A stretch of DNA of 64,000 bases from Verrucomicrobiota bacterium. GTDB taxonomy: Bacteria > Verrucomicrobiota > Verrucomicrobiia > Limisphaerales > UBA11358. The notes below the pieces were generated by a model, which searched no databases, had not been told where the DNA came from, and was given only the letters and a program-made list of their open reading frames with translations. Of this stretch, positions 4,105-26,911 are shown one piece after another; position 1 is the stretch's first letter, and each line of letters starts with the position of its first letter. The stretch lies in assembly GCA_050008355.1 (NCBI GenBank), contig JBEKMT010000007.1, forward strand, positions 7,844 to 71,843, in the 5' to 3' direction. The position numbers were made by a program, and so were the translations under genes.

Positions 4105-7059
4105 ATGAACACACCGAACTTAACGCGCCGCGCTTTCGGCCGGTTTTTTACCTCCGTCAGCTTAATGCTGGTGGCTGCCGGCTCAGCCCGTGCGGATTAC
4201 CAGAGCACAGTGCTCGCTGATAATCCCCTGGCATTTTATGCCCTGAATCCGGCCACGGATCCCGCCGGTACCTCCCCGGATTTGACCGGCAACGGCAACA
4301 ACGGCGTTGCGATTGGGATCTCGGCTGTCGCGGGACCAACAGCCTTTATCACAAATGCAGCATCTTTTGATGGGGAAGCGCTGATTGATTTGAGCGAAGG
4401 CAGCAATCCCAATTTGCTGAACTTTAAGGGTCCAATCACTCTGGAAGCCTGGGCGCAACCTTCCAGCACTTCGCTGTTTGGCGATATCCTTGCCAGAGGT
4501 TATGACCAGGATAATTATAGCGAAATTGCCATCCGGGTTAATGGTCCGTACGGGCAAAATTATTACGGCAGTTCGGGAAGCGTTGGTATTAATGGCGGTA
4601 CGCAAACGACCAATTGGACTTATATCGTCTTATCCAGCGACGGCACCAATTGCAGTCTCTATGAGAATGGTGTGCTGGTGGCCCAACAAGCTGACACGAC
4701 TGGATCCACAACCAATTTTCCTGCTGGAAACGATGATTGGGTCATTGGCAATGGTAGCAGTGCCGGGAACTCCAGGCTCTTCGACGGTGGCATCAGCGAA
4801 GTGGCCATTTATGATCACGGCCTGACCGCAGCCCAGGTCTTAAATCATTATTATGCGGGCGAACTAAATGCTCCCGCCAGCAGCTCTCCCCCCATCATCA
4901 CCACTCAGCCGCAGTCACAACCAAGTTATGTCGGTGGATCGGTGACGTTTACTGTTGGAGTTGTAAGCGCTTATGCCACAACCAATCAATGGTTTTGGAA
5001 TAGTAGCCCGATTAACGGCCAAACTAACGCTTCGCTGACGCTCTCCAATCTGCAGCTCGGCAGCGCCGGTACTTACAGTGTTATCGTCGGTAATATTAAC
5101 GGCACCACCAATAGTTCTTCAGCCACCCTTACCGTCTCCACACCACACGATCTCGAATGGAGTTCTGTTAATAATAATGGCAATTGGGACACCGATACTT
5201 CAACCAACTGGATCAACCTCGCGAACAGTCAGGAAACGGTCTTTAACCCGGGCGACCAGGTTTTGTTCGACGATACACCGGGAGTGCCTACTTCTGTGAC
5301 CGTGAACGGAACGGTTGTTCCCAGCTTGATAACGGTGAATTCCACCAATAATGCCTTCGACATCAGTTCCGGCACCATCAGCGGTTCCGGCGGGTTGATC
5401 AAGGAAGGCCCCAGTACCTTGACTATCACCAGCGCGGGTGGCTTTACCGGTCCGGTGACCATCGGCGGCGGGGTTATCTATGCCGGCAATAATTGTTTTA
5501 ATTCAGTTTCTTCGATTAGCATTACCAATGCCTCCACTTTGGATGTTGGCGGCGGCCAAATCCAGGGCAGCAGACCGGTTACGATATCTGGTGACGGTTT
5601 CAGTGGTGAAGGTGCTCTCTTTAACAGCTACAACAATTACCCCACTGAAGTGATGGATATCACGCTCGCTGGTGACGCCTCTTTCGGTGGCACTGCTCGC
5701 TGGGATCTGGGCTCCGGTTCGCAAATCACCGGGCCTTACACTCTGACGGTCGACTGGTCGGCAGACACGGCCAATGGCTACTATGGCCAATGGAATTCAG
5801 TCGAAATCGGGGCTGATGTGGCTGGTATTACGGTCACCAATGCTCAGAGCGGTAGCGGTGTGACGACAGCGCTCGGGCTGACGGGCATGGACTCGGCTTT
5901 TCAAAATCCTGGCACGCTCGTGACTCTCAACACCAATTGCCAGTTGGTTTTTTATAGTGGTGGATTTAATGGAAGCCTCCATGTCCTTGGCGGCGCGACG
6001 GTCTATCTCGAGACGGAAAACGTGGCGTTCAATGGTGCGAGCCTTACTTTTGAAGGCGGTTCCGCCTGGCAAACCTATTATAATAGTGGCACTAACGCTA
6101 TTAATAGCGCCATCATTTTGGATGGCGTTTCCCACTTCGTGATTGGTGACCACAACATGAATTATACCAACGTGATCAGCGGACCCGGCGGTTTTGTGGA
6201 AGATTATTACAATCACGACATGGTTCTCTCTGCTTCCAACACATATACCGGTCCAACCATCATTGGCAGCAGCGGTAATACCCCGGAGGTTGTCTTGACC
6301 GGAAACGGTTCGATCTCCAGCAGTTCGCTGATTTTCTTCGGCGGTAATATCGCGACGGTGGCCCATATTGATGTGACTGGTCGCTCGGACGACACGCTGA
6401 CGCTGGCCAGCGGGCAGACCCTAGAAGGCATCGGCGGTATCAACGGCAATCTCGTGGTCTCCACCGATGCGATCCTTTCGCCGGGCGGCACCAATACCAC
6501 CATTGGAATCACTACGGGCTCCAACCCTGTTGGGACAGTGGCCGCAAGCGGCAGTGTCACCTTGGACGGTACGACGATTATCAAGCTGGACGGCACGACC
6601 AACGACATTGTTCAGGCAGCGACCGGTATTACTTATGGTGGCACATTGAATCTGGTTAATGTCAGCGGATCGCCACTGGCTGCTGGCAACAGTTTCCCCG
6701 TGTTCGCTGCGGGGAGTTATTCCGGTTCATTTACAGCCATAACGCCGGCAACTCCAGGAACGGGTCTCGCTTGGGACACGTCAAAACTGACCAGCAGCGG
6801 TACGATCAATGTGGTGGCCTCCGGCGGCTCAAGCGTGGTGATCGGGAGTACCACGATCTCGGCTGGAAACTTGGTCTTAGGCGGAACTGGCGGAACGGCG
6901 AACGGCACTTACTATGTGCTGACAGCCACCAATCTGACATCGCCGATCTGGATCCCGGTCTCGACCAACACGTTTGATGCCTCCGGCAATTTCAGCGTCA
7001 CCAATGCCATTAATGCCAATGATCCTCAGCAGTTCTATCGTATTGAACTGGTGCAGTAA
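4105..7059 (+). CDS. Secreted protein: LamG/ConA-like domain, Ig-like domain, autotransporter-associated beta-strand repeats, C-terminal F[FY]R module
   Basis: Signal peptide ending in ARA. LamG motifs ITLEAW and FDGGISEVAIYDHGLTAAQV. Ig motif PIITTQPQSQ...GTYSV. Repeats ISGSGGLIKEGPSTLTI and LSASNTYTGPTII. Ends QQFYRIELVQ. Confidence 0.85.
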   Translation: MNTPNLTRRAFGRFFTSVSLMLVAAGSARADYQSTVLADNPLAFYALNPATDPAGTSPDLTGNGNNGVAIGISAVAGPTAFITNAASFDGEALIDLSEGSNPNLLNFKGPITLEAWAQPSSTSLFGDILARGYDQDNYSEIAIRVNGPYGQNYYGSSGSVGINGGTQTTNWTYIVLSSDGTNCSLYENGVLVAQQADTTGSTTNFPAGNDDWVIGNGSSAGNSRLFDGGISEVAIYDHGLTAAQVLNHYYAGELNAPASSSPPIITTQPQSQPSYVGGSVTFTVGVVSAYATTNQWFWNSSPINGQTNASLTLSNLQLGSAGTYSVIVGNINGTTNSSSATLTVSTPHDLEWSSVNNNGNWDTDTSTNWINLANSQETVFNPGDQVLFDDTPGVPTSVTVNGTVVPSLITVNSTNNAFDISSGTISGSGGLIKEGPSTLTITSAGGFTGPVTIGGGVIYAGNNCFNSVSSISITNASTLDVGGGQIQGSRPVTISGDGFSGEGALFNSYNNYPTEVMDITLAGDASFGGTARWDLGSGSQITGPYTLTVDWSADTANGYYGQWNSVEIGADVAGITVTNAQSGSGVTTALGLTGMDSAFQNPGTLVTLNTNCQLVFYSGGFNGSLHVLGGATVYLETENVAFNGASLTFEGGSAWQTYYNSGTNAINSAIILDGVSHFVIGDHNMNYTNVISGPGGFVEDYYNHDMVLSASNTYTGPTIIGSSGNTPEVVLTGNGSISSSSLIFFGGNIATVAHIDVTGRSDDTLTLASGQTLEGIGGINGNLVVSTDAILSPGGTNTTIGITTGSNPVGTVAASGSVTLDGTTIIKLDGTTNDIVQAATGITYGGTLNLVNVSGSPLAAGNSFPVFAAGSYSGSFTAITPATPGTGLAWDTSKLTSSGTINVVASGGSSVVIGSTTISAGNLVLGGTGGTANGTYYVLTATNLTSPIWIPVSTNTFDASGNFSVTNAINANDPQQFYRIELVQ

Positions 7060-7169
7060 TATTTTGTCTCAAAACAGCGTGACGCTGTAAGAGATTGATT
7101 GAACAGCAAACAGCCGCCGGCTTGACGTTTAGGCTGGCGGCTGGTTTGTCAAAAATGAAAGTACGTAAC

Positions 7170-8000
7170 ATGAAAAGTAACAGGAAAATCAAAGTTGTTT
7201 CGCACCGGGCGGCTGCGTTCACGCTCATTGAGCTATTAGTTGTCATCGCCATCATTGCCATTCTGGCTGCCATGTTATTGCCGGCTCTGGCCAGCGCAAA
7301 ATTGCGCGCCCAGCAGTCCACCTGCATTAACAATCTGAAACAACTGACGCTGTCCGGCCAGATGTATTATGATGACAACAAGACGTTCATCGGCCCGACC
7401 ACCTCCAACCCGGATACCAGCTTGGGCGACTGGATGGGGACGATGCTCGTTTACTATGGTCATGCGACCAACCTGATCTTTGATCCGGCTGCCCCCGACA
7501 AGGGAAATCCCGGCGGACAGAATGCAAACGGATTCGCTGATACGGCCTGGCATTGGACCGTTGGCGGCCCTCCTTACTATGCTGGCAGCTATGGCTTCAA
7601 CAAATGGCTTGAAAGCAATAAGTACTACGGCTATGACGCTCGCAACTTCGGGCAGGAATCGAACGTTCAGCAGCCGGTGATGACTCCTATATTTACGGAT
7701 AGTGCCTGGATCAACTATTACCCGGATGTTGGAGATACACCGCCGACCAGTTTGTATGACCCGATTGATCATCCTGGTGTTAACACGACGGGATTGACAC
7801 GGATATGCATCGCCAGACATGGCGGCAAACCGGCAAGCGCTGCTCCTCGTGCATTGCCTGTCGGTACTACTGCATTGCCCGGAAACATCATAATGGGATT
7901 CTATGACGGCCACGTGGGGTCGGAAAAGCTCCAAACACTTTGGAGCTACTATTGGAATTTGACCTGGGTTCCAAAAGCCAATCCGCCTCCCGTGCTCTAA
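7170..8000 (+). CDS. Prepilin-type N-terminal cleavage/methylation protein of the PVC H-X9-DG (DUF1559-like) class
   Basis: [25 protein letters not shown], then CINNLKQL, and C-terminal RH...GFYDGHV. Start is ATG 7155 or 7170. Confidence 0.9.
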
Positions 8001-8001
8001 A

Positions 8002-10245
8002 ATGAAGTTTCCGCGAGGGGTAGGTTGCGGAATCTTGCTGGCAATTGCTTGGTTGCAATCGACCAGCGCCGCCCCCTCCTTCCGGCAGATCGGAAGCACT
8101 TTGGTCATGTCCAACGGCAATGTCCGGTTGGAATACAACTTGGCCGCCGGCACGACCGACTTTTACTGGGCGAATTCCAAGAAGATTTCAGCCTTTTACA
8201 GCGGTGTCGGGCTGAGTTCGGGATATATCGAAGGTCCCGGTTACAGCAGTTGGGGTTATTCTGTTGTCAACAGCAATCAGGCGGTTGTCGTCGCCACCGG
8301 CGGTGGTTTGCCGACGATGAGGCAATATTTCACGCTGGACCAAAACGACAGTTTTTTGGTCCGCGTTGACTTGACAGGAACCAATCTGAGTGCCAACTGG
8401 ATGGGGCCGGTGGTGGTGGATTCGACCGGTGGCGTGGACATCGGTGTAACCAACGATAATCGCGCACTGTACGTGCCATTTGACAACGATGGCTTCGTTT
8501 CCTACAACGCGATGCCGATAAATGACTCCAGCACCAGTTATGAAGTCGGTGCATTTTTCGATAATACCTCCCGAAACGGGTTGGTGGTTGGCTCGGTCAC
8601 CCACGACACTTGGAAAAGTGGAGTTTATTTTAATGGCGCAAATGACAAGCTGAACCAGATGAATGTGTTTGGTGGGGCGACGTCGCCCTGGGATGTCATG
8701 CCGCATGGATTCGTCTCTGGAAACACGATTTCTTCCCCAACGATGTTTGTCGGGTTTGGTGACGACTGGCGGATGATCATGCAGCAGTATGCCGCTGAAA
8801 ACACCAACTTTACGCCACGAATGATCTGCACCAATAGCGTTCCGTTCGGCTGGAATAGTTGGGGCATCATTCAGGAGAATATCAATTATGCTGATGCTAT
8901 TGCTGTCTCCGATTTTTACCACACCAATCTGGAAACAAAGGGTTTTACCAATAGCCAGGGATTGGTTTATATCAACTTGGATTCCTATTGGAACAACCTG
9001 GATTCTTTTGAACTGCAAAGTTTTGTTAATCACTGTCATGCGCGCGGCCAGAGAGCCGGCATTTACTGGGGGCCGTTCGTATGGTTTGGGTCGGCCGCCG
9101 ACGCGACCAACACTTTTGTGGAAGGCACATCCAACACTTATCGGTATGGCGACGTACTGCTGCGGGATGGCAGTGGCAACTTCGAATCTGTCGACGGCGG
9201 ACTGGCCATGGATCCCACGCACCCGGGCACGCGGGAGTTTATCTCGTATTGGGTTAACCAATTCACCAACTACGGGTTCGATTACATCAAACTTGATTTT
9301 CTATCGCACGGCGCTTTGGAAGGGGTTCATTATGACACCAATATAACGACGGGTATTCAGGCCTATAATGAAGGTATGTCGAATGTAATCAGCCAGATCA
9401 ACGGCACCATGTTTGTCAGCGAATCCATCGCGCCGCTGTTCCCGTATCAATACGGCGAAAGCCGACGCATCGCCTGCGACGCGGAGTCTTCTTTGATCAG
9501 CAACACTGAATATACTTTAAACTCGGTCACTTATGGTTGGTGGTTGGACAATTTGTATCAATTCAATGACCCGGATATCATGGTGTTCAATGGCTACGGC
9601 GCCACCGCCAATGAAAGCCAAAGCCGGCTCATTAGCGGAGCGGTTACCGGAGTTTTTCTCGATGGAGACGATTTGACGTCCACCAATGGCCAACAAGCGG
9701 CGGATTCTTTTTTGACCAATGATGCCGTCAACGCCGTTGCCCGCGTTGGCCGGACCTTCACTCCGGTCGAAGGCAATACCGGAACCGGCGCCGCCGATAT
9801 TTTTGTCCGGCAGGACGGGGCAATCTGGTGCATCGCTGTTTTTAATTACACCTCCAGTGCGACGAACGAAACTGTTGATCTGAATCGCGCCGGTCTGCCA
9901 TCGGGAACTTACGTCGCGACTAATTTATGGGATGGAACGACGATGATAGTTTCCAGCACTTTTAATGTCCTCTTGAATCCAAAACAGGCAAAGTTGTTTC
10001 AGTTGGCAAATTATGTCCCTGCTCCGAAATTTACGGACACGAAGATCGTCGGCCGCAACTTGATCCTCAGCGGCAACGGTGGCGCGAACGGAGTCCCTTA
10101 TTATGTCCTCATGGCGACGAACCTGACGACCCCACTCGCCAACTGGGTGGTCGTGACAACAAACTTATTTGACGCCTCTGGCAATTTTATGGTCACCAAC
10201 GCCTTCAACTCAAATAATTTACAACAGTTTTATCGCATCAAATGA
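8002..10245 (+). CDS. Secreted clan GH-D glycosidase (GH27/GH36, alpha-galactosidase-like) with C-terminal F[FY]R module
   Basis: Signal peptide, PFGWNSWG, YINLDSYW, GFDYIKLDF (nucleophile), RRIACD and FNDPD. Melibiase-like C-terminal domain. Ends QQFYRIK. Confidence 0.85.
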   Translation: MKFPRGVGCGILLAIAWLQSTSAAPSFRQIGSTLVMSNGNVRLEYNLAAGTTDFYWANSKKISAFYSGVGLSSGYIEGPGYSSWGYSVVNSNQAVVVATGGGLPTMRQYFTLDQNDSFLVRVDLTGTNLSANWMGPVVVDSTGGVDIGVTNDNRALYVPFDNDGFVSYNAMPINDSSTSYEVGAFFDNTSRNGLVVGSVTHDTWKSGVYFNGANDKLNQMNVFGGATSPWDVMPHGFVSGNTISSPTMFVGFGDDWRMIMQQYAAENTNFTPRMICTNSVPFGWNSWGIIQENINYADAIAVSDFYHTNLETKGFTNSQGLVYINLDSYWNNLDSFELQSFVNHCHARGQRAGIYWGPFVWFGSAADATNTFVEGTSNTYRYGDVLLRDGSGNFESVDGGLAMDPTHPGTREFISYWVNQFTNYGFDYIKLDFLSHGALEGVHYDTNITTGIQAYNEGMSNVISQINGTMFVSESIAPLFPYQYGESRRIACDAESSLISNTEYTLNSVTYGWWLDNLYQFNDPDIMVFNGYGATANESQSRLISGAVTGVFLDGDDLTSTNGQQAADSFLTNDAVNAVARVGRTFTPVEGNTGTGAADIFVRQDGAIWCIAVFNYTSSATNETVDLNRAGLPSGTYVATNLWDGTTMIVSSTFNVLLNPKQAKLFQLANYVPAPKFTDTKIVGRNLILSGNGGANGVPYYVLMATNLTTPLANWVVVTTNLFDASGNFMVTNAFNSNNLQQFYRIK

Positions 10246-10955
10246 TTATCAAATCGAGCCACACCATGATGATGAAATACCTCCTTACTCTCGCGTTGAT
10301 TGCCAGCTTCGCGACATTTGCCAAGGCGGAACTCTTAACCGATCCGCCCGCAGCCCGCGAATCCATCGAATGGTGTGACATCTGGATTTCACACGCTAAT
10401 GAAACCAATTTGCCGCGCGTTTTGCTGATCGGCGATTCGATCACGCGTGCTTACTATCCCGAGGTTGAGAAAGACCTCGTCGGCAAAGCGTACGTCGGAC
10501 GGTTTTCCAGTTCGGCTTTCATTTCCGACCCGGCACTGCTCAAGCAAATTGAAATGGTGTTGAGCCAGTACAAGTTCGACATCATCCATTTCAATAACGG
10601 CATGCATGGCTGGCAACATAGCGAGGAGCAATATGCGCAAGCCTTTCCGGAGTATCTCAAGACCATACAAAAATACGCGCCCGATGCAAAACTGATTTGG
10701 GCGGACACAACGCCGTTTAAAGTGTCACCGCGCTTGCCGCCGGACAATCAAACCGTTGCCACGGATGAACGTATCGCGGCGCGTAATGACATCGCCCACA
10801 CAATTATCCGGGCGCGGGGAATACCCGTGGACGACTTAAATATGCCGATGCGCGGCCATCCCGAGTATCACTCCGATAACGTTCATTTCAATGAGCTGGG
10901 GATTGCCATCCAGGCCGCACAAGTTGCCGCCCAAATCGAGAAGCTGCTAAATTAA
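10242..10955 (+). CDS. Secreted SGNH/GDSL hydrolase
   Basis: LLIGDSIT, FNNGMHG and DNVHF motifs plus signal peptide. ATGA overlap with the upstream gene, although a later ATG (10266-10272) is possible. Confidence 0.88.
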   Translation: MIIKSSHTMMMKYLLTLALIASFATFAKAELLTDPPAARESIEWCDIWISHANETNLPRVLLIGDSITRAYYPEVEKDLVGKAYVGRFSSSAFISDPALLKQIEMVLSQYKFDIIHFNNGMHGWQHSEEQYAQAFPEYLKTIQKYAPDAKLIWADTTPFKVSPRLPPDNQTVATDERIAARNDIAHTIIRARGIPVDDLNMPMRGHPEYHSDNVHFNELGIAIQAAQVAAQIEKLLN

Positions 10956-11027
10956 GCTCCAGTTTCGCAGTCGACCGGATTCCGGGACGCGCCGATCTTC
11001 CCAATCGGTGGCCGCCCGGCGGATGGT

Positions 11028-12716
11028 TTACTTATTTATCAATTCGATTTCGTTGATGGTCGGCGCGTCGGTGGCGTCGAGTATGTTCAACCGGAATTCT
11101 CGCGCTGACACCGGGTCAAAGGATTGCTCAAAGTGGTTTCCCAGTTTCGTGCCGGAAAAGATCGTTCTCCAGTCATCGCCGTTTCGATACTGAAATTCAT
11201 ATCGTTGCACGCGGTTTGCGTAGGCCTCGGAAATCCGCACGCCGCCAATAGTACGCGGTCCGGCGTAAGCCACCGCTATCCATGCCTGCTTTGTGCCGCT
11301 ATCGGTAGCCCAGCGGGTTTGCTCGTCGCCGTCAAATGCATTCTGAGCGCCATAATCTGCGTTGTCGTTTTGATACACATTTGATGCGTCGGCTTCAAAA
11401 CCGCGTGGCAATTCTACCGCTGGAATCGCCATCGCCGAGCCGCCAAGTTCCAATTTTATCACTGTGTCAGCGGTATCGCGCTCAGCTGCCGGAACCGTGA
11501 TCAACAGTTTTCCGGCCTTCCGGGCGAAGGACACATTGCGGCCGCCTAGAATCCCGGAGGATTTGATTTGACCGACGATGTCTGGCAATTCGACAGTCTC
11601 ATTATCACCGTGCAGGAGGTGAACATAAATCACACTGCCGCTTCGCGTGCTTGCAATAGACTTCGTCGGCTTCCAGGGGCCGCCGCGCGTGCCATATATA
11701 CTTTCGCCATTTTTGGAGAGCCAGGCGCCAACTTGCTGCAACACAGTAATTTGGCGAGGTTCGATGCGGCCATCAGGCATCGGGCCGACGTCCAGTAGGA
11801 GGTTCCCGTCGCCGCCGACGCATTGCGCCAGAATGGAGATTACCTTGCTCGCCGGTTTGATTTCGTCATCGGGTTTCCACGCCCACTGCGTCCCGATTGT
11901 CATGCACGTCTCCCACGGAGTTCTGTCATCGTACGCCCCAATGCTTTGTTCCGGTGTGTAATAATCTTCGTTTGGCTTCAACCGGCCCTGGTGCGCCCAT
12001 TCATAAAAACTATCCATTTGCAAACGGTTGTTGATAATGATGTCCGGCTGCAATCCACGCACCAGGGGATAAGTCGTCGCCGGCTCCCACATTGTTGGAA
12101 GACCGTCGGTGTCAAACCAGAGCACATTGATGGTGCCGTAATCGGACAGCAATTCGCGCAGCTCAGCCTGGATCTTTTTTACAAAACGGGAGTTGTGCGC
12201 GGAACGGCAATCCGGATCGCGCCAATCCATCGGCGAAAAATACCATCCAATTTTCTCATCTTGCGCGTGCGCTGCCGCAGCCAGTTCTGCGCAAACATCT
12301 CGATGGAACGGTGTCGCTGCAATGTTATAAGCGTCCACTTTAGAGTCCCACAACAAAAAGCCGTCGCCGTGTTTAGCGGTCAGCACCATGTATTTCATGC
12401 CGGCAGACTTGGCGGTCCGCACCCATTCGTCGGCGCTGAAATTGGTCGGGTTGAACTGTTTGTAAAGATTATCGTACACCTTGACCGGGATCGGGCCGTT
12501 ATTCGGGCAGTTGGAATTGGAATTCGCGCGCGACCAGCTGATCTCCTGTCCCGTCAGGCTGACCGGGCCCCAATGAATGAACATCCCGAAACGCCCGTTA
12601 CGCCACCACGCCATCCGGGCGGCTGATTGGCCGGGGGATTCAGCATGCACACCAGTGACGATTGCGCAAACGGCGAATAGGATGTAATTCGCAATAGATT
12701 TATTATTTTTCATCAT
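11028..12716 (-). CDS. Alpha-L-fucosidase (GH29) with C-terminal F5/8 type C (CBM32-like) domain
   Basis: RFGMFIHWG, AGMKYMVLTAKHGDGF, VLWFD, WETCMT, GNLLLDVGP, and C-terminal NAFDGDEQTRWAT. Confidence 0.93.
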   Translation of the reverse strand: MMKNNKSIANYILFAVCAIVTGVHAESPGQSAARMAWWRNGRFGMFIHWGPVSLTGQEISWSRANSNSNCPNNGPIPVKVYDNLYKQFNPTNFSADEWVRTAKSAGMKYMVLTAKHGDGFLLWDSKVDAYNIAATPFHRDVCAELAAAAHAQDEKIGWYFSPMDWRDPDCRSAHNSRFVKKIQAELRELLSDYGTINVLWFDTDGLPTMWEPATTYPLVRGLQPDIIINNRLQMDSFYEWAHQGRLKPNEDYYTPEQSIGAYDDRTPWETCMTIGTQWAWKPDDEIKPASKVISILAQCVGGDGNLLLDVGPMPDGRIEPRQITVLQQVGAWLSKNGESIYGTRGGPWKPTKSIASTRSGSVIYVHLLHGDNETVELPDIVGQIKSSGILGGRNVSFARKAGKLLITVPAAERDTADTVIKLELGGSAMAIPAVELPRGFEADASNVYQNDNADYGAQNAFDGDEQTRWATDSGTKQAWIAVAYAGPRTIGGVRISEAYANRVQRYEFQYRNGDDWRTIFSGTKLGNHFEQSFDPVSAREFRLNILDATDAPTINEIELINK

Positions 12717-12793
12717 CGGCTAGCGGCACGTCAGAGGCTACTACCCCCAATCGGCTTGGTTCAGCTGGCTGATGTTGTTCAAGTTGACAGATC

Positions 12794-13852: not shown

Positions 13853-14007
13853 ATCGGCTAAAAGCCTGGTTTCGCAATCCCCCGCTTTTAAAACTCGAGG
13901 CTCTTCGCTCTCGTGGGGATTGCGCGCCTGCCTCGTATGGCGATGAACGATTCTTCTGATTGGAACCTGACCTGTAAATAATAGCGGTCATTGGATTCTG
14001 CCTCAAA

Positions 14008-14038
14008 TTGACAAAACACCATGAATTTGTTTCACTTT
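14008..14038 (+). promoter_or_regulatory. Putative sigma70 promoter for the riboswitch/K+ transporter transcript
   Basis: Perfect TTGACA at 14008-14013 and a weak -10 (TTCACT or CACTTT) near 14031-14038, directly before the riboswitch. Confidence 0.5.
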
Positions 14039-14040
14039 AG

Positions 14041-14192: not shown

Positions 14193-14245
14193 ATCCTCTG
14201 GGGCAAAACCGCTCCAAGTTCCCCAAGTTTGGCGTGTACTCGAAT

Positions 14246-16219: not shown

Positions 16220-16363
16220 CACGACTTTTCGACTCCAGTTGGTTACTCCGGTGCAGACGTGGCGCGGCTAATTTACCTCGACACAGCGCAAAGGCTGAAA
16301 TACGATTCGCAATCGGGAAAGGAAAGCCACTGGTTGCGGCGGAATTCAAACCAAGGATGCACC

Positions 16364-16861
16364 ATGACGACTCCAATCATCTCCCAAAGAATGACGGCAA
16401 TCATGGAAGGGGAGTTCTGCGTTTTCCTGATCGGAATGAGGATTAATCGCCCGTGGAAATTGCACAAATGGCTCCCGGTGGCCATGGCCATGCCCAGAAT
16501 GCTGCGCGAATTGGCTGCTCACAAGGAACTTGGATTTCTTGGCGGTCGTGCTTGGTTTGGTCGCACCATTATTTCCGTGCAGTATTGGCGCTCCATGCGT
16601 CACCTCACGGAGTATGCCTCAAACAAAGCTCACGAACACCTGCCGGCCTGGATTGCCTTTACTCGCGCCGTCGGAAATAGCGGCGATGTCGGCATCTGGC
16701 ATGAAGCATATTCCGTCAAGCCAGGTATTTTCGAGACCATCTATCACAATATGCCACCGTTCGGTCTCGGGCGTGTTGGCTCGCTCAAGGTTGCTACCGG
16801 AAGATACCAGTCCGCCAATGACCTTATGAAGGCCCCGACCACACCGCCAGCAGGACCCTAA
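16364..16861 (+). CDS. DUF4188 family protein (monooxygenase-like fold)
   Basis: VFLIGMRINR, QYWRS..L..YA, HLPAW, GDVGIWHE.Y and IY.NMPPFGLG match the family pattern. Confidence 0.85.
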   Translation: MTTPIISQRMTAIMEGEFCVFLIGMRINRPWKLHKWLPVAMAMPRMLRELAAHKELGFLGGRAWFGRTIISVQYWRSMRHLTEYASNKAHEHLPAWIAFTRAVGNSGDVGIWHEAYSVKPGIFETIYHNMPPFGLGRVGSLKVATGRYQSANDLMKAPTTPPAGP

Positions 16862-16898
16862 GAGTCGTTTGGCTTTAAATTGAGTCTCTGAAAAAAGC

Positions 16899-19800
16899 AT
16901 GAAAGATCGGCGTTCAATTCCTGGGTTCCTTCGATGCGGGATTGACTCATGCCGGTGGGTTCAAGTTCTCCTCGGCATGGCCAGCTTGCTCGTTTCGCCG
17001 CCCGTGGCTCGGGCCGCCGATGCGGTAGGCGGGGGCTGGCTGCAGGGAGGAGTCTTGGGACAGTACTATCCCAACGCCAACTTTGCCGGCGCTCCGGCCT
17101 TCACACGGCGGGATGTGCGCATTGATTTTGACTGGGGCTCTTTCGGGCAACCGGGCGGCTCACCGGCGCCCGGCTTTAACGCCGTCAGTAATCAGAATTT
17201 TTCCGTCGTCTGGACCGGCCAGATCATGCCCCGATTCAGCGAGACCTACACCTTCACGCTGATCGCCGATGCCGGGGCGACGTTATCCATCCAGCCGACG
17301 AACTCTTCCACTTGGACAACGCTGGTAACAGCATCGACCGGCAACACCAATTCAGCCGCCACAAATATGGTGGCAGGTCAGACCTATAACCTGCAGCTCT
17401 CCTACCACGAGACCACGGGCACGCCTGTGTGCCGGCTGTGGTGGTCCAGCCCCAGCACGCCGGAAGAGGTTCTGGACACCGTCACGCTGGCGGGGCTGAA
17501 TGTGGATACATATGGCGCATACGATTATCAGTTGTATGCCAACGCCATGGACGACGGCCGCGACGAATGGGGCACCTATAATGGAGGAACCCTGATCCCG
17601 ACGCCTCGCGACACCAATGGCTGGCCCACCGCCGACGCCACGAACATAGTGTTCGAAGGCGCCGGCGAAAATGGCGCCAGCATCGTGACCGGTACCTATC
17701 TGCTTCAGTTTCAGGGGCAAGCTTCGGTCCATTGTGCTCTGAACACTGGCACACTGGTGGTTGACGGCACCAACTACGGCAGCAACCTGCCTTTCGGAAC
17801 CGGCTACAATTCGACCAGCAATCTCACCAGCGCCAACCTAATCGTTGCCACCAATAGCGCCGGCATTTTGTATTTGGGTTTCCAAAACACCAGGCGGAAT
17901 CCAGGCGACGCAACCAACACAGGTGTAGCCGATGTGAAGCTCATGCGCCCCGTTAGCCCGGGCAGCACCAATTGTTTTCCGGTGGGCACTTTCTTCTATG
18001 CGCCCTTCGAGAGTGCTGTCCAGCGCTTCACGATCTTGCGTTGGATCCAGAATAATCAGGTGGTACCCGACACCGAGTGGACCAACCGTCCCGACACCGA
18101 GCTGCCGGCTTATTCCACCCATAATTCCCAAGGCACCCTGCGTTATTGGGAATATATGGTCATGCTGGCCAATGAGTGCGGGAAGGATCTTTACCTGTGT
18201 TTTCCTGGGCAGGCATCGAACGATTACCTGACCAATGTCGCCAACCTGATCTGCTATGGTTCCGACGGTGTGAACCCTTATGCCTCGCCGCAGGCCAGTC
18301 CGGTTTACCCTCCGCTCAATCCAAACCTGCGGATCATCCTCGAACACCAGAATGAGGTTTGGAATTTTTCCTTCCTCAACTGGGGACAAAACCTCAGCGC
18401 CATGCTCGAGGCGTACACCAACAATACGCCCGACTGGCAGATTGTTGATTATGACGGAGTCTATGACCCTGCCACCGGTGCCGGCAACCAATTTCAGGCG
18501 GCTATGCGCTGGCACATTCTCCGTGCTTTGCGTTGTTCGGATATTTTCCGCTCTGTCTTCGGGGACGCCGCCATGGGTTCGCGGGTGAGGGTGATTTACG
18601 AATATCAATACGACGACGCCAACAACACAGCCTCGTTTGCACTGCCTTTCATTGACAATTATTTTAATAACAGCGACGGCAGCAACCATGTGGCCACGCC
18701 TTATCCTGTCAACCACTATTTCTGGGGTGCCGGCGGTGCGGTCTATTATGGCAGCGGCGATGAGAATGGCATACAGACCAATATCGTTTTTGCCGACAGC
18801 GGCTTTGAGACTCCCGCCCTGCCGGCAGGTGGAGTGGAGACCAATCCGGCCGACGCCTCCTGGCGGTTCAGCGGTGACGCCGGAATCTACAACGCCGCGG
18901 TGAGTGGGCTCGGGAATCCGCCCGCTCCACCTGATGGTTCTCAGGCGGCCTTCATTCAAGGTACCGGGGCGATCAGCCAGACGGTGAACTTCACTACCAC
19001 CGGCGCGTATGCTCTCGGATTTCAGAGCGCGGAACCCACCAATAATATTAACAGTGTTCAGTTTTATTTTGACGATACTTTGATCACCCCCAATGGCAGC
19101 TACGCCGACGGCCCGTCTGCGAACCAATGGGTGCCGGGTTCCTTTGGAGTAAGCGCCCAAACCTTTAGCTCCTACTCGACTTATGTGTTCCAGGTAACCA
19201 ACCCGGGACCGCACACGCTCACCATTCAGGGTCTGGGGATTGGCCAATACGACCCTACAAACACCCCGCCGAATAACAATTTATTCATCTATTTCGACGA
19301 CTTGGAAATTGCCAGCGCCGCGGCGCTCTTTGCCGGCGGCATTCCCGGCCCCGGGGTTGCCAATGGCCAGGTTGGGAACGCCGGTTATTCTGTGCAACTC
19401 GACGCGCAGGCGCACTACGCGCAGGCCTACGGTCTCCAAGTTGTCGCTTATGAGGGCGGCTGGTCATTGGGAGGCGACTTCAACAAGACCGCCTTCGAGA
19501 ACTGGTGCGGATTCTACGACCCGCAAGCGGAGTTCGTTAATTTAAACGCCCTCAACACTTTTGCCCAGAGCGGCAGCCGCTATTATGTATTCGGCACGTA
19601 CGAAACCTGGCCCGGTTACGATACAGTTAATGTCGGCAACTTTCCTCTCGTTCAGGGCGTGGACGCTGCCAACGCCGCCCTCCCAGCTTCCCCTCTCAAT
19701 GGCATCAACGTGCCCAATGTGCTGACCCCTGCGAACAACAGCTGGCTGGTCAATGCCAACGCCAATTCCGATTCCATCAGCGGTACCGGCGGTTGGTTTT

Positions 19801-21320
19801 ACTGGAGTGTGTTGGCACCGCAAAGCGGAAACTTCGTGATTACCCCCGGTTATCAATCGGGGGCTGGTACCGTGCTGGAAGTGGACGGCCTGGCCGCCAG
19901 CCCCGGCACTACCGTGACGAATTTTCTGACGCAAGGACTGCACGCCATCAAGCTGCGTTCCACCAACGGTGCGCTCACTGTCACCAATGTGACCATCACC
20001 CAGATTGGCGCGCCGAATTCACCCACACTTGAATCTGTCATCCCGGATATCAGCCAATCCGGCTTCGTGAACTTGAATTGGTCACCAGCGGCCAGTGGCC
20101 CACCGGCGCAGGGCTACCTCGTTTACCATGGTACCGCTTCAGGTAATTATGATATCGCAGCGGCAATTGGCGATGTGACAAATTACACCTTCGACGACCT
20201 TCCCGAAAACGCAGCAGCCTATTTCGCCGTAGTGGCCACCAACGCCGCAGGCTACAGCCTTCCGTCCAATGAACTGAACATCACCCCGGTGTCGCCGGGC
20301 GCGAACCAGGCTCTTCTCGTTTGGGATTTTCTCGCGGCCGGTGGCAGTGCGGCTACCGATGGGAGCGAGGCGTCCGTCGCTTCCACCAGCACAGCCTACG
20401 GTATGCAAACCAGCGCGATAACGCGGGGACCCGACACCCCGGCGAGTGCCTTGTATGCATATGGGGGGCTTGGTGCCATTAACTCTCACTCGGCGGCAAG
20501 TTGGGCTGGCGCAAACCTCGCCGCCGCCACGCAAGCCGGCAGCTATTTTCAGTTTGCCGTCGGTGCCCTTGGCGACAACCGGTTCTCCCTTTCCTCAGTC
20601 TCCTACGTCACCTATCAGCAAAACACGACCAGTTCCTCCACAGTCGTCCTTGAATACAGTACCAATGGTTTCGTTAGCGGCGGTGCTGCCTTGGCCACAA
20701 ACCGCCCGATCAACGGTAACTGGGTTGGTACCACCAACACCGTGTCACTTGCCAGCATCGCCGGCATGCAAAACACCACCAACTCAGTCACATTCCGGAT
20801 TTATGGCTATGGATTCACACCGTATAATGACCACGGTCTCGGTCAGGCGGCTGGCCACAATGCGGATGTGGCCGTTTCCGGCTCCGTGTATTATCCCGTG
20901 GCGACCCCTTCGTTCAGCCCTACGCCGGGCAGCTATGCTGCCAGCCAGTTGGTGACAATTTCCACAACCACAACCGGTTCCTCGATTAATTACACCGCCG
21001 ACAGCACAGTCCCTACTGAAAGCCATGGAACGCTCTACACTGGCCCGGTAAACGTGGCCTCAAATGTCACGCTGCAGGCCGTCGCCTATCAAGCTAATTT
21101 CGTTGACAGTGCCGTGGCCACCGCGAGCTATACGATCACGCAGCAGCCGGTCTCCTTGAGTCTCGAGAAGAGTGGCGCAGATCTGCTATTAACCTGGCCG
21201 CAGGGCACTCTGCTGCAAGCAACCAACGTGGCCGGACCTTGGGCGACGAATAATGCTTCCTCGCCCTATACCTTATCACCCGCCAACCTCCAGATGTTCT
21301 TCCGCATTCGCCTCCAGTAA
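16899..21320 (+). CDS. Large secreted multidomain protein: PA14, putative GH-A-like barrel, FN3, chitobiase/hexosaminidase C-terminal domain, F[FY]R module
   Basis: PA14 (IDFDWG..NFSVVWTGQI..SETYTF), NEVWN and YEGG motifs, FN3 (LNWSP..GYLVY..YFAVVATN), PVATPSFSPTPGSY..PTESHGTLYTGP. Ends QMFFRIRLQ. Confidence 0.8.
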   Translation: MKDRRSIPGFLRCGIDSCRWVQVLLGMASLLVSPPVARAADAVGGGWLQGGVLGQYYPNANFAGAPAFTRRDVRIDFDWGSFGQPGGSPAPGFNAVSNQNFSVVWTGQIMPRFSETYTFTLIADAGATLSIQPTNSSTWTTLVTASTGNTNSAATNMVAGQTYNLQLSYHETTGTPVCRLWWSSPSTPEEVLDTVTLAGLNVDTYGAYDYQLYANAMDDGRDEWGTYNGGTLIPTPRDTNGWPTADATNIVFEGAGENGASIVTGTYLLQFQGQASVHCALNTGTLVVDGTNYGSNLPFGTGYNSTSNLTSANLIVATNSAGILYLGFQNTRRNPGDATNTGVADVKLMRPVSPGSTNCFPVGTFFYAPFESAVQRFTILRWIQNNQVVPDTEWTNRPDTELPAYSTHNSQGTLRYWEYMVMLANECGKDLYLCFPGQASNDYLTNVANLICYGSDGVNPYASPQASPVYPPLNPNLRIILEHQNEVWNFSFLNWGQNLSAMLEAYTNNTPDWQIVDYDGVYDPATGAGNQFQAAMRWHILRALRCSDIFRSVFGDAAMGSRVRVIYEYQYDDANNTASFALPFIDNYFNNSDGSNHVATPYPVNHYFWGAGGAVYYGSGDENGIQTNIVFADSGFETPALPAGGVETNPADASWRFSGDAGIYNAAVSGLGNPPAPPDGSQAAFIQGTGAISQTVNFTTTGAYALGFQSAEPTNNINSVQFYFDDTLITPNGSYADGPSANQWVPGSFGVSAQTFSSYSTYVFQVTNPGPHTLTIQGLGIGQYDPTNTPPNNNLFIYFDDLEIASAAALFAGGIPGPGVANGQVGNAGYSVQLDAQAHYAQAYGLQVVAYEGGWSLGGDFNKTAFENWCGFYDPQAEFVNLNALNTFAQSGSRYYVFGTYETWPGYDTVNVGNFPLVQGVDAANAALPASPLNGINVPNVLTPANNSWLVNANANSDSISGTGGWFYWSVLAPQSGNFVITPGYQSGAGTVLEVDGLAASPGTTVTNFLTQGLHAIKLRSTNGALTVTNVTITQIGAPNSPTLESVIPDISQSGFVNLNWSPAASGPPAQGYLVYHGTASGNYDIAAAIGDVTNYTFDDLPENAAAYFAVVATNAAGYSLPSNELNITPVSPGANQALLVWDFLAAGGSAATDGSEASVASTSTAYGMQTSAITRGPDTPASALYAYGGLGAINSHSAASWAGANLAAATQAGSYFQFAVGALGDNRFSLSSVSYVTYQQNTTSSSTVVLEYSTNGFVSGGAALATNRPINGNWVGTTNTVSLASIAGMQNTTNSVTFRIYGYGFTPYNDHGLGQAAGHNADVAVSGSVYYPVATPSFSPTPGSYAASQLVTISTTTTGSSINYTADSTVPTESHGTLYTGPVNVASNVTLQAVAYQANFVDSAVATASYTITQQPVSLSLEKSGADLLLTWPQGTLLQATNVAGPWATNNASSPYTLSPANLQMFFRIRLQ

Positions 21321-21646
21321 GATTTAAGCGGTCGCTTTTCAATCGTTCGACTTTTCAAATGGCTGTCATTGGATTCCTTTATTCCAATGGGGGAACACCC
21401 AATGAGGCTGTTCTTCGCAGTGTTATCTTTTGTTCTGCCAAAACGACAAGCATCAGCAAAAACAAGTTTTATTTTGGAAACACACCGTGGCTTCCATTTG
21501 CCATGGTCCTCCCAGTCCCGTCCGGTTCCTCATCATAATCTGGCCTTGACGCTTAAGGTGAACTGCTAAAGACTATTAGCCTTCACTCATGAAGGTGTTG
21601 AAACCATCCGGCGAAATGCACGCTGCTGCACGTTCGTACTGCGCAT

Positions 21647-22720
21647 ATGGCTAAAGTCAAAATCGCATGCCCCGATTGTGGCCGGGTGCTTCAGTACGAT
21701 GAACTGTACGCTGGCAACAAAATAAAGTGTCCTCATTGCAAGCTTTCGATATTCATTCGACAGGCTTCGCTCGCCGGCATAGCCAGGCCGAGGCAACGGC
21801 GGATAAAGCGCAATGCGGTTATATTCTCCTCTTCATCCATTCTTCTGGCAATAGTTGCAGTTTTGTGGATATGGCTTCTTGAGCCGGTCAGAGTGCAATG
21901 GCCTGACCGGCGCCCAATCGGCATTTTATTTCTCGCCTCCGATTTTCATGCTTCCGCAAAAAATCCAAGAGGTTGGTTCAATGATGCAAACCTCGACATT
22001 GTCGGTCCGGGCGGCGCGGAGCGTTTCCGGAAAGCCCTTTTTGATTACACTGACCGCAGCATCGCCAATCTGAAACGGACTGGAGCGCAGGGAGTCATCG
22101 TCTGGGATTTGGAAGGAGAACAATTTCCTCACAAAATTAGCTTTATCGGCGATCCTCGTTTGCTGGACCGGCTCGCTCCGGAAATGTTGCCGGTGGTGGA
22201 TGAGTTTTTCGGACGACTGCGCGGGGCCGGATTGAAAATTGGTTTGACGATTCGTCCGCAACAGTTTGCCTTTATCAAAGGGCACCCCAGGCAAACTCAG
22301 GTGCTGGATATTAAGCAGATCCTGCTCTCAAAAATTAACTATGCCCGGGCGCACTGGGGGGTGACGATTTTCTACGTCGATTCAAACGGTGGGATTCGAA
22401 GACCCGACGAAGCCGCACAACTTCGTAGTCTGGCAGCCCAACAGCCCGATATCCTTTTGATTCCAGAGCATCACTACCTGCCATACTGGGAGTTTAGTGC
22501 TCCCTATGTCTCTTTGCGCAGAGGTGAGCCAGCCCTTACCGCAACCGTGGCGCGAAAATTATTTCCCGGAGCGATTCAGGCATTGGACATCAGCGGTGCC
22601 TCTCAGGAATCGGCGGAAATTACTGAGGCATGGACCCAGGGTGATATTCTCCTCTTTCGCGCATGGGAATGGAGCCCGGAATGCGACATTCTCGAGCGAC
22701 TTTCGCGCGATTCGCAATAA
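21647..22720 (+). CDS. Zn-ribbon + single TM + extracytoplasmic alpha/beta domain protein of unknown function
   Basis: CPDC...CPHC at the N-terminus, a basic stretch, hydrophobic ILLAIVAVLWIWLL, then about 275 aa of globular domain. Confidence 0.75.
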   Translation: MAKVKIACPDCGRVLQYDELYAGNKIKCPHCKLSIFIRQASLAGIARPRQRRIKRNAVIFSSSSILLAIVAVLWIWLLEPVRVQWPDRRPIGILFLASDFHASAKNPRGWFNDANLDIVGPGGAERFRKALFDYTDRSIANLKRTGAQGVIVWDLEGEQFPHKISFIGDPRLLDRLAPEMLPVVDEFFGRLRGAGLKIGLTIRPQQFAFIKGHPRQTQVLDIKQILLSKINYARAHWGVTIFYVDSNGGIRRPDEAAQLRSLAAQQPDILLIPEHHYLPYWEFSAPYVSLRRGEPALTATVARKLFPGAIQALDISGASQESAEITEAWTQGDILLFRAWEWSPECDILERLSRDSQ

Positions 22721-22880
22721 CGGAACAGCTGGGCTGTCCCTCCTCGGTATTCAGCTATTCACCCTTAACCAGCTGTGGTGCCGACAGTGCCGATGAGCCG
22801 GTGCCTAGGCCCGGTCGGGCCGGAAAGTTGGCTTGCCATATGCTTAATCAAACGTTGCTGAGAAACTCGACCATATTTTC

Positions 22881-25211
22881 ATGAAAGCTAGAAACGCTTG
22901 TTTCGTGGCTCTTGCCGGATTGTTGTTCATCTTTACAACACCTGTTTTTGCCCAGTCCTATGCGTTCACCACCCTTGCCGGCTCCGCAAGTCAAGGTAGC
23001 AGCGACGGCACCGTTACCAATGCACGATTTTTCGCACCACAGGGTGTCAGTGTGGACGTTAACGGTGATGTCTATGTCGCGGATTCGGACAACAGCACCA
23101 TAAGAGAAATCACCCCGAAAGGTCAAGTCAGCACCATCGCCGGTCAAGCCGGAGTCGCAGGTTATTCGGATGGCGTCGGTACCAATGCGCTGTTTTTTCT
23201 GCCAAAGGGTCTTGCAGTGGATGCCAGCGGCAATCTCTACGTGGTGGACACATTCAATGAGGTGATTCGCAAACTCACTCTTTCCGGAACAAACTGGGTG
23301 GTCAGCACGCTCGCCGGCCAGGCAGGTTTGGCGAGCTTTGCCGACGGCACAGGCACCAATGCGGCGTTTAATCGGCCAACCTCGGCCACTGTGGATGCTG
23401 CCGGCAATATTTATATCACGGATCAAGGCAACGATCTAATCCGCAAAATCACACCTCTCGCCGCGGTATCCACCATCGCCGGCGAACTGGAGACCAACGT
23501 CAGCCTCGACGGCACGAATGGCGACGCCCAGTTTGCCAGTCCGACCGGCGTCGCGGTGGACAAAGCCACCAATCTTTTTGTGACGGATGGTGATAACACC
23601 ATTCGCAGGATGATGCCGGTCGGCACGAACTGGGTGGTGACCACTATTTCCGGGCAACCCAACGACTACGGCGGTATCGATGGGCCAGGAACCAACGCAC
23701 TGTTTTCCGGACCGGCTGGCGTGACAGTGGACACTAATGACGATCTTTATGTGGCTGATTCATTCAACAAAACTGTCCGAAAACTCACGCCCCTGGGAAC
23801 AAATTGGATGGTGAGCACCCTGGCCGGGCTGGCGGGCGTTCAAGGTTTCGCGGATGGTACAAACAGTGCCGCACGCTTCGGTTCACCCGTCGGTGTCGCG
23901 ACGGACCGAGCCGGCGACATATTCGTGGCCGACGTCAACAACAACAACATCCGGCAGATCACACCCCTCGGCACCAATGGTGTCGTCACCACCCTGGCCG
24001 GAATCGGCCCCGGTAGCGCTGATGGCCCTGGTCCCGACGCCCGGTTTTGGAACACAACCGGAATCGCCGTGGATGCTTCCGGCATTGCGTTTGTGGCGGA
24101 TTACTTCAACGACACCGTCCGCCGCATTGCCACAAACGGCGTCGTATGCACCATTGCCGGACTGGCCGGTAGCAGCGGCAGCGGCGACGGCACCAACTCG
24201 GATGCACGCTTTTTTAACCCGCAGGATGTCGCTCTGGATGGCCATGACAATGTGTACGTCACCGACATTTTCAATAACACCATCCGCAAAATCAGTCCGA
24301 TTGGCACGAACTGGGTCGTGACCACCATTGCCGGTCAGGCTGGCGCTCCCCCGGCTGAGGCGGATGGAATCGGCACTAACGCCCTGTTTTATAATCCGAC
24401 CGACCTCGCCGTGGATTCGAACACTAATCTCTATGTGACCGACAGTTCGGGTCAGACCATCCGAAAAATCACCCCGGTTGGCACGAACTGGGTGGTCACC
24501 ACCATCGCCGGATTTCCCATGGCGGGTGGCAGCACGAACGGTATCGGTACCAATGCCCTGTTCTTTTATCCACATGGCATTGCCGTGGATGCCGCTGCCA
24601 ATATTTATGTGGCGGATACGCTGAACGACACGATTCGCAAACTGTCGCCGGTCGGCAACAACTGGATGGTCACCACCATTGCCGGCCAAGACGGCTTGAG
24701 TGGCAGTTCCGACGGCCTTGGCACGAATGCCCTGTTTTACTTTCCGGAAAGCGTTGCCCTGGATACTTCTGGCGATCTGTACGTGGCCGACACCTTCAAT
24801 GACACGCTGCGCCGCCTGACGCCGGTCGGTGCCAATTGGAGTTCGTCCACCATCGCCGGACAGGTTCAAATCACTGGCGACACCGATGCGAGCGGCACCA
24901 ATGCGCTGTTTGATTTCCCTGAAAGCATCGCGCTCGACTCCGCCGGCGACCTCTACGTGGCGGACACAGACAACAACTCAGTCCGCGTCGGCCAACTCAT
25001 TTCCAGCCCGTCTTTGCAAATCAGTCTCGTGGACAACCTTGTGTTGGTTTCCTGGCCAGGTGCGGGCAGCTACGCCTTGCAAACGAACAGTGATCTGTCC
25101 ACCTCTAACTGGGTTAGTTACAGCGGCACGGTAACCACGACCACCGGCACAAACAGCATTGCCATTACGCTACCCGCGGGCCAACTATTTTTCCGGCTGG
25201 CGAGCCCCTAA
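22881..25211 (+). CDS. Secreted NHL-repeat (teneurin-like) beta-propeller protein with C-terminal F[FY]R module
   Basis: Signal peptide and 12 repeats of TIAG..G..DG.GTNALF..P.G.AVD..GN.YVAD..N..IRKI. Ends QLFFRLASP. Confidence 0.9.
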   Translation: MKARNACFVALAGLLFIFTTPVFAQSYAFTTLAGSASQGSSDGTVTNARFFAPQGVSVDVNGDVYVADSDNSTIREITPKGQVSTIAGQAGVAGYSDGVGTNALFFLPKGLAVDASGNLYVVDTFNEVIRKLTLSGTNWVVSTLAGQAGLASFADGTGTNAAFNRPTSATVDAAGNIYITDQGNDLIRKITPLAAVSTIAGELETNVSLDGTNGDAQFASPTGVAVDKATNLFVTDGDNTIRRMMPVGTNWVVTTISGQPNDYGGIDGPGTNALFSGPAGVTVDTNDDLYVADSFNKTVRKLTPLGTNWMVSTLAGLAGVQGFADGTNSAARFGSPVGVATDRAGDIFVADVNNNNIRQITPLGTNGVVTTLAGIGPGSADGPGPDARFWNTTGIAVDASGIAFVADYFNDTVRRIATNGVVCTIAGLAGSSGSGDGTNSDARFFNPQDVALDGHDNVYVTDIFNNTIRKISPIGTNWVVTTIAGQAGAPPAEADGIGTNALFYNPTDLAVDSNTNLYVTDSSGQTIRKITPVGTNWVVTTIAGFPMAGGSTNGIGTNALFFYPHGIAVDAAANIYVADTLNDTIRKLSPVGNNWMVTTIAGQDGLSGSSDGLGTNALFYFPESVALDTSGDLYVADTFNDTLRRLTPVGANWSSSTIAGQVQITGDTDASGTNALFDFPESIALDSAGDLYVADTDNNSVRVGQLISSPSLQISLVDNLVLVSWPGAGSYALQTNSDLSTSNWVSYSGTVTTTTGTNSIAITLPAGQLFFRLASP
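22953..24995 (+). repeat. Twelve degenerate ~160-180 bp coding tandem repeats (NHL units)
   Basis: Recurrent GGCACGAACTGGGTGGT.ACCAC.AT.GCCGG and GGTACCAATGC.CTGTT segments inside the CDS. Confidence 0.8.
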
Positions 25212-26892: not shown

Positions 26893-26911
26893 GACTGCCT
26901 ACAGACACGTC

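Follow-up and report, generated by a model that had tools for sequence, protein, structure and literature searches.

Four unrelated exported proteins encoded in a 64,000-nucleotide stretch of a Verrucomicrobiota genome (GenBank assembly GCA_050008355.1, contig JBEKMT010000007.1, positions 7,844 to 71,843 of the forward strand; the whole stretch is hereafter called the window) end in variants of one small C-terminal module. This module belongs to a large paralogous family in Verrucomicrobiota that curated domain libraries have missed. Statistically, it behaves like a terminal tag: it occurs as a single copy, stays last through insertions, ends at a fixed point and is carried by diverse exported cargo. 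Structure prediction describes it as an autonomous folded beta-sandwich domain of ~57-75 amino acids (aa) and not as a peptide signal, and sequence comparison points to a truncated homologue of the fibronectin type III (FN3) domain that ends 4-5 residues past the Arg of its F-strand motif F-[FY]-R-[LIV]. We hold these two elements jointly, i.e. the identity of the domain and the terminal rule, with high confidence. As to function, our tentative preference, held at somewhat less than an even chance, is that this FN3 cap without a G strand (G-less) serves as a non-covalent docking or retention module for exported proteins in the cell envelope.

Verrucomicrobiota rank among the major degraders of polysaccharides in soil, in water and in guts. 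To our knowledge, the retention or release of their exported enzymes and adhesin-like proteins is largely unexplained. In the genome studied here, ~3% of the long open reading frames (ORFs) share this single terminal module, which lacks annotation. As a defined family, it would help to annotate many thousands of hypothetical proteins and could serve as a simple marker of the phylum's exported proteome.

A family of C-terminal modules on unrelated exported proteins

The four window genes all lie on the + strand. P0001 (4105..7059, 984 aa) comprises a signal peptide, LamG, Ig and autotransporter-type beta-strand repeats ahead of its terminal module, and P0002 (8002..10245, 747 aa) a signal peptide, an alpha-galactosidase-like cargo and the module. 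In P0003 (16899..21320, 1473 aa), a signal peptide, PA14, a large unassigned region, fn3 and CHB_HEX_C/Fn3_assoc precede a short version of the module, and in P0004 (22881..25211, 776 aa) a signal peptide and NHL beta-propeller repeats do so. A preliminary description of the window, made from the sequence alone, had quoted the four C-termini and ascribed signal peptides and different cargo to all four proteins, and each of these statements stands: the translations end exactly as quoted, a signal peptide is visible in every one of them, and LamG plus Ig plus autotransporter-type repeat, alpha-galactosidase-like, PA14 plus fn3 plus CHB_HEX_C and NHL propeller are indeed different cargo.

On the + strand, the modules themselves occupy 6826..7056 in P0001 and 10018..10242 in P0002 (both starts approximate; the YYVL..TNL..W..FDxxGNF..FYRI subtype), 21147..21317 in P0003 (the short ~57-aa subtype, LTWPxGTLLQA..GPW..SPY..FFRI) and 25002..25208 in P0004 (the LVSWP..YALQTNSDL..W..FFRL subtype). 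The division into two tail subtypes that had been proposed thus fits only one of its pairs, as the tails of P0001 and P0002 are identical at 41/68 positions, whereas those of P0003 and P0004 are of different length and agree at only 17/65. The first two tails lie 3 kb apart and are this similar, yet the cargo of P0001 and P0002 shows no meaningful similarity; the module has been shuffled onto unrelated proteins. Pfam and NCBIfam scans of the four whole proteins reported nothing on the tails, and P0002 as a whole matched no Pfam family.

The C-terminal pattern exceeds chance. Across the genome, F[FY]R[ILVM] plus 0-6 residues forms the end of 122 stop-terminated ORFs out of the 43,606 with ≥60 aa, compared with 23.3 expected from the overall frequency of the motif; among ORFs of ≥200 aa, the same ending is found in 100 of 4,712. 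Further genome counts rest on a fixed profile made from an alignment, A1, of 64 tails: 60 diverse ones from the same genome, together with the terminal 90 aa of each of the four window proteins. This profile identifies 151 domains in 149 ORFs, of which 147 carry a single copy. Most domains (129/151) end ≤10 aa from the stop codon; the others are 16 non-terminal copies without the FG-loop pattern, four non-terminal copies that resemble canonical FN3 and two that are cut by contig ends. Among the 129 terminal copies, the protein ends 4-5 residues past the motif Arg in 102, and Pro is the final residue of 67 and Gln of 31.

These matches do not depend on the window proteins having been included in the profile. 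A leave-window-out version built from the 60 other tails still matches P0001 (E 5e-17, residues 900-982), P0002 (E 3e-13, residues 664-746) and P0004 (E 4e-8, residues 699-776), each at the C-terminus, and 0/100 shuffled tails. The P0003 tail is missed by both profiles. Its short (~57 aa) subtype has nine strict regex matches in the genome, none of which A1 finds, and is linked to the main family by profile-profile comparison only (hhalign, 96.9%, E 1.7e-10, 56 columns), where the terminal match is in part built in because the set was picked with a regex that includes the terminal motif. Altogether, the genome holds at least 138 terminal copies.

Export of the tail-bearing proteins, another element of the preliminary description, is supported beyond the window: a crude signal-peptide heuristic is positive in 60/79 tail-bearing ORFs compared with 795/2,334 other ORFs of ≥300 aa, and a number of the 19 negatives show a clear signal peptide from an alternative start. 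The cargo includes LRR_5, NHL, RCC1 and Ig/Big domains as well as carbohydrate-active enzymes (CAZymes). A random 10 of the 68 eligible tail-bearing ORFs comprised two BspA-type LRR proteins, two NHL or propeller proteins, one RCC1 protein, three Ig/Big/MBG proteins and two without a family.

Comparison across homologues shows how firmly the module keeps its place. P0002 has 1,196 homologues at E ≤1e-20, in a short form of ~747 aa and a long form of ~1300 aa. In the long form, cargo and module are separated by ~550 aa of autotransporter-type repeats, which precomputed annotation assigns to PF12951. In a survey of the best 120 of the 1,196, all ≥69% identical, 119 close homologues of the P0002 cargo were compared and the module is last in 110, among them 50/51 long forms; the nine exceptions end within repeats or in sequence that looks off-frame and are probably fragments. 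Some of the close homologues carry the alpha-galactosidase C-terminal sandwich (PF17801) or bear the name alpha-galactosidase. The source names of close homologues are Verrucomicrobiae, Limisphaerales or Pedosphaera, and 'hypothetical protein' prevails among cluster names. The C-terminal half of P0001 has the same layout of repeats plus module as the long P0002 homologues.

The terminal rule also extends to other members of the phylum. When the best match was taken from each of 40 other genomes, 35 ended 0-6 aa ahead of the stop; of the other five, three run on for ≥150 aa and one for 47 aa, and one is cut by a contig end. In a sample of 201 genomes of the phylum, for which match numbers per genome are lower bounds, the module is present in 77 (E ≤1e-5), with a patchy, family-wise distribution: some families have it almost throughout (16/17, 7/7 and 5/5 genomes) and others not at all (0/32 and 0/17), as is the case for one genus (0/16). 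The nearest clusters of the module in a protein atlas are unnamed Verrucomicrobiota clusters.

Predicted fold and relation to FN3 domains

AlphaFold modelling of the P0004 tail with the A1 alignment yielded a mean pLDDT of 87, and of above 89 over the module, with strands at residues 27-31, 34-40, 46-50, 66-68, 71-77 and 84-88 (plus a two-residue bridge at 59-60), the last of which is FFRLA. A P0001-type tail (pLDDT 89.5) was likewise modelled with six strands, ending in FYRIEL. Both models are beta-sandwiches without a hydrophobic helix, consistent with the beta-rich tail that had been postulated. Foldseek returned zero PDB matches at E ≤1e-3, its top rows being CBM21, CBM56 and an engineered FN3. 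With the VIA exhaustive structure aligner, which listed FN3/Ig-like domains only, the best match of the P0004 tail is a cytokine-receptor FN3 domain (Z 7.5, rmsd 2.4, 67 aligned residues) and that of the P0001-type tail the BIg domain of SiiE (Z 8.0, rmsd 2.2, 68 aligned), followed by many FN3 domains; Z-scores at this level point to a common fold and indicate no specific relative. A complex prediction for two module copies scored 0.01, which is no verdict for or against self-association.

The relationship to FN3 emerges from profile comparison. Aligned by hhalign with 60 canonical FN3 copies that had been extended beyond the G strand, A1 scores 96.2% (E 2.6e-9, 74 columns), a probability that is inflated because the canonical copies were themselves found with A1, which does not affect the mapping of the ends. 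The last columns of the module align with the F strand at template column 93/116, and the final 23 columns have no counterpart. Since the module stops right after the F strand, the FG loop and the G strand are missing. PDB sequences matched by the profile include the bacterial Fn3-like 3mpc (E 1.2e-3, profile 21-85 against residues 13-74 of 103) and the FN3 of neuroglian (E 1.9e-3). In a Pfam search, none of the 64 tails matched fn3 (PF00041) even at E ≤1, and no family was matched consistently.

A profile search of 1.84 billion representative proteins found 90,458 at E ≤1e-3 and 10,363 at E ≤1e-10, totals that include canonical FN3. The best 150, a set biased to multi-copy proteins, fall into 106 that are mostly G-less, 18 that are mostly canonical FN3 and 26 that are mixed, as judged by a regex heuristic applied to the copies. 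Canonical copies have an F strand such as YYYRL, an FG loop of the A.N..G.S..S type and a G strand, and repeat in tandem with a period of 90 aa; the tandem period of G-less copies is 77 aa. Pfam fn3 recognises the canonical representatives (P0108 in 10 stretches, E 4e-83; P0151, E 5e-27) and assigns 0 families to P0008, an array of eight G-less copies. In such arrays, nothing but a short Pro-rich linker separates one copy from the first strand of the next, and the module therefore folds as a unit that lacks a G strand; the idea that downstream sequence supplies the missing strand was rejected for arrays on the same sequence evidence.

These representatives also illustrate the capping position of the module. 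In those that are mostly G-less, the last copy lies ≤10 aa from the C-terminus in 96/106. Representative P0151 has eight canonical FN3 copies and then one G-less copy as its final domain, and in P0006, P0015, P0030 and P0036 arrays of one G-less subtype are capped by another that ends in RFYR[LV]xxP.

The structural neighbours of the module are FN3 domains, A1 cross-detects canonical FN3 arrays, and the module has in common with FN3 (PF00041) the LxW of strand B, the Y of strand C and the Y/F-Y-R-V motif of strand F. It differs in that canonical FN3 has seven strands (A-B-C-C'-E-F-G), with G paired with F, whereas the models of the module end at the FYR strand; moreover, its AB region is shorter, its period is 77 instead of 90 aa, and it shows a strong bias towards the C-terminus and towards single copies.

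Non-terminal copies and the weighing of explanations

Any functional reading has to accommodate the copies that are not terminal. The preliminary description had put forward a tag at the extreme C-terminus, to be refuted by internal matches. Terminal position is indeed the rule in the genome (129/151), across the phylum (35/40) and among P0002 homologues (110/119), yet internal matches do occur, which by that standard weakens a sorting signal of the T9SS type. Several observations weigh against a docking function for a terminal cap. Sixteen G-less copies of the genome are N-terminal or internal, e.g. directly past the signal peptide and ahead of a GDSL esterase domain, ahead of multihaem cytochrome domains, ahead of a PA14/DUF1800 giant, or between an N-terminal domain and a GH5 cellulase domain. 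In other proteins, up to 13 G-less copies are arrayed head-to-tail. The motif Arg is kept in 124/129 terminal and in 450/524 (86%) non-terminal copies, so that the FYR motif is a feature of the fold and not of the terminus, and a terminal-specific signal within it was rejected. Non-terminal copies and arrays are equally expected of an ordinary Ig-like spacer or binding domain, and the terminal bias could come partly from the ease with which domains are shuffled at the 3' end of genes. To this are added the draft state of the genome (5.46 Mb in 359 contigs, 94.3% complete, 6.1% contamination) and, for the representatives, the inclusion of canonical FN3, the multi-copy bias and the heuristic split described above.

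Another such non-terminal case is L115 (genome G000, contig C190:50761-52782, + strand), a 674-aa cytochrome-c-peroxidase-like ORF with CxxCH motifs that carries a P0001-type module in its C-terminal part. Its module ends in YYQI instead of FYRI, and the ORF has no Pfam family at E ≤1e-4.

If the module were an ordinary extracellular Ig/FN3-like domain, i.e. a spacer, a stabiliser or a generic binder of ligands or carbohydrates that is last mainly because 3'-end gain is easy, then its FN3 homology, the tandem arrays of 77-aa period, the copies ahead of GH5, GDSL and cytochrome domains and the equal conservation of the FYR motif in non-terminal copies would all be natural. A carbohydrate-binding module (CBM) could also be seen in CBM21 and CBM56 among the Foldseek top rows and in a weak partial match of the profile to discoidin/CBM32 of a glucanase (PDB 2rv9/4zxe; profile 21-77 against residues 53-110 of 136, ~58 residues, E 1.2e-5). 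The stretch concerned, LxW...YxLQxSxxL...W.., is discoidin-like, the glucanase is of Paenibacillus type, and either convergence or distant kinship may be involved; sub-threshold F5/8-type-C matches were also seen in the G-less representative P0018. Discoidin, F5/8 type C and CBM32 were nevertheless rejected as the identity of the module: the match covers only part of a ~130-aa jelly roll, a single one of the 64 tails touches an F5/8-type-C model (PF22633, E 0.15), and no Pfam family is matched by the tails consistently. Moreover, a spacer would serve no purpose as the last element of a protein, the cargo is far wider than CAZymes (LRR, NHL, RCC1, cytochromes), and the module stays last with ~550 aa inserted ahead of it, caps arrays of canonical FN3 or of another subtype, is single in 147/149 ORFs and ends at a fixed distance past the Arg. 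On balance, we consider an ordinary domain of this kind a serious if doubtful explanation.

Two further readings assign the tail to a secretion machine. As a C-terminal sorting signal for a dedicated Verrucomicrobiota secretion or attachment machinery, possibly removed after transport in the manner of the type IX secretion system (T9SS) C-terminal domain (CTD), the module would account for its extreme C-terminal position in 85-92% across genomes, for more than 100 diverse exported substrates per genome, for a size and fold class similar to the T9SS CTD and for the patchy, lineage-wise distribution in 77/201 genomes. The internal, N-terminal and arrayed copies weaken a strict signal of this type, though, and no conserved feature is specific to terminal copies. 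No candidate export or attachment machinery shared by the four genes is encoded in the window, and the adjacency to prepilin genes is weak (see below). Neither the T9SS CTD model (PF18962/TIGR04183; 0 matches) nor SprA (TIGR04189; no candidate in a genome that is 94.3% complete) was detected, which does not amount to absence because the control genomes, 14 in the case of SprA, were silent too. PEP-CTERM/exosortase substrates were rejected as well: the genome encodes such a system on several contigs (e.g. C247:2648-2716 and C343:8365-9141), with eight PEP-CTERM matches (PF07589) and five exosortase matches, but on proteins other than those with the module. The PEP-CTERM matches fall on short ORFs (198-274 aa), and the tails are beta-rich without a hydrophobic helix. 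A dedicated sorting signal is therefore improbable in our judgement, and the tail is unlikely to serve a dedicated translocon as a targeting peptide that is cleaved off. We rate lowest the reading in which the module is a recognition determinant for type II secretion (T2SS) of unrelated periplasmic substrates. It can draw on six secretin matches in the genome, on secretin in 77/77 module-positive genomes, on the Pel3 Fn3 domain among the structural matches, where it is tied with many other FN3 domains, and on the Fn3-loop precedent of Pel3/PelI (PMC7949064). Yet secretin is found in 197/201 sample genomes, including 120/124 module-negative ones, and its co-occurrence is thus uninformative for a T2SS link; in addition, known T2SS signals are no portable terminal domains, and a signalling role hardly explains arrays of the module.

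We therefore tentatively prefer docking or retention in the envelope because it accommodates the terminal-tag statistics and the internal or arrayed copies alike. Cargo and cap would be exported by Sec and then probably pass the outer membrane, after which the cap may hold enzymes and adhesin-like proteins at the cell surface via a free edge or a face of its sheet. If so, the module would offer an experimental handle on a new mechanism of surface display; if it is only a structural domain, it would still add a new family of the Pfam type and clearly illustrate that an FN3 can be stable without a G strand. A more specific version, in which the exposed F-strand edge is completed in trans by a strand of an outer-membrane or surface receptor or of a same-module scaffold, strikes us as quite improbable, a little more so than the dedicated sorting signal. 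Were it true, one type of receptor could dock more than 100 different exported enzymes and adhesins, as a beta-strand-complementation counterpart of cohesin-dockerin or T9SS CTD attachment, and the module would represent one half of a new Verrucomicrobiota surface-display system.

Gene context and comparison with known systems

The gene content of the window is of the carbohydrate-utilisation type, with XylR/AraC regulators, a fucosidase, a GDSL esterase, a permease and a MacB-type ABC pair. The latter (ABC_tran, then MacB_PCD plus FtsX; 26200-29509, +) lies directly downstream of P0004, and a 357-aa ORF between P0003 and P0004 (21647-22720, +) matches nothing in Pfam at E ≤1e-3. The interval that separates P0001 from P0002 encodes a prepilin-type N-methylation protein (PF07963, E 1.7e-7) at 7095-8000 (+), and the preliminary description had speculated that tail subtypes pair with different pseudopilin adaptors. 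The genome as a whole lends this almost no support: with ~93 N-methyl-like ORFs found by motif scan, 11/117 tail genes (9.4%) and 127/2,406 other long ORFs (5.3%) lie ≤500 nt from one, there is no difference within 5 kb (17/117 compared with 300/2,406), and none of the N-methyl ORFs of the genome carries the module.

Among known systems, the T9SS CTD of Bacteroidota (Por_Secre_tail), to which the tail had been likened at the outset, is alike in being a small beta-sandwich at the C-terminus of many Sec-exported proteins that are otherwise unrelated and number tens to hundreds per genome. The analogy thus applies to position, size, fold class and cargo diversity. It does not extend to lineage or strictness: the T9SS CTD is strictly C-terminal with one copy per substrate, whereas the module is also internal, N-terminal and arrayed and belongs to the FN3 lineage, and 0/64 tails match PF18962 even at E ≤1, with nothing on the tails from NCBIfam either. 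In structural comparison, no CTD is found among the 50 matches shown for each VIA search or among the Foldseek rows, which does not exclude a family that is not listed there.

Chaperone-usher pilins are incomplete Ig-like folds that are completed in trans by donor-strand complementation. Like them, the module is an Ig-like beta-sandwich without a final G strand whose F strand is left as a free edge. In contrast to them, it is modelled confidently on its own, and arrayed copies are followed only by a short Pro-rich linker. No donor extension, chaperone or usher came to light, with no search aimed at a partner.

SLH, dockerin and WxL modules mediate non-covalent anchoring and are also found repeated and at either end of proteins, which is why the arrayed and N-terminal copies of the module described here fit this kind of anchoring. 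The resemblance lies in modularity, in shuffling onto diverse exported cargo and in a location that is usually terminal, sometimes repeated or at the other terminus; there is no relation in sequence or fold. A literature search found no description of the terminal module itself, as judged from listings and within a reach that excluded subscription journals and supplementary files.

Finally, the pectate lyases Pel3 and PelI illustrate that an FN3-type domain can contribute to recognition by an envelope machine. According to PMC7949064, Fn3 loops are part of a composite T2SS signal in these secreted enzymes, and the Pel3 Fn3 domain is among the structural matches of the P0001-type tail (Z 6.5, rmsd 2.6, 67 aligned). 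As described there, however, the Fn3 domain of Pel3/PelI is N-terminal and complete, and its loops act together with the catalytic domain (PMC7949064), unlike a G-less cap that is portable onto more than 100 cargos.

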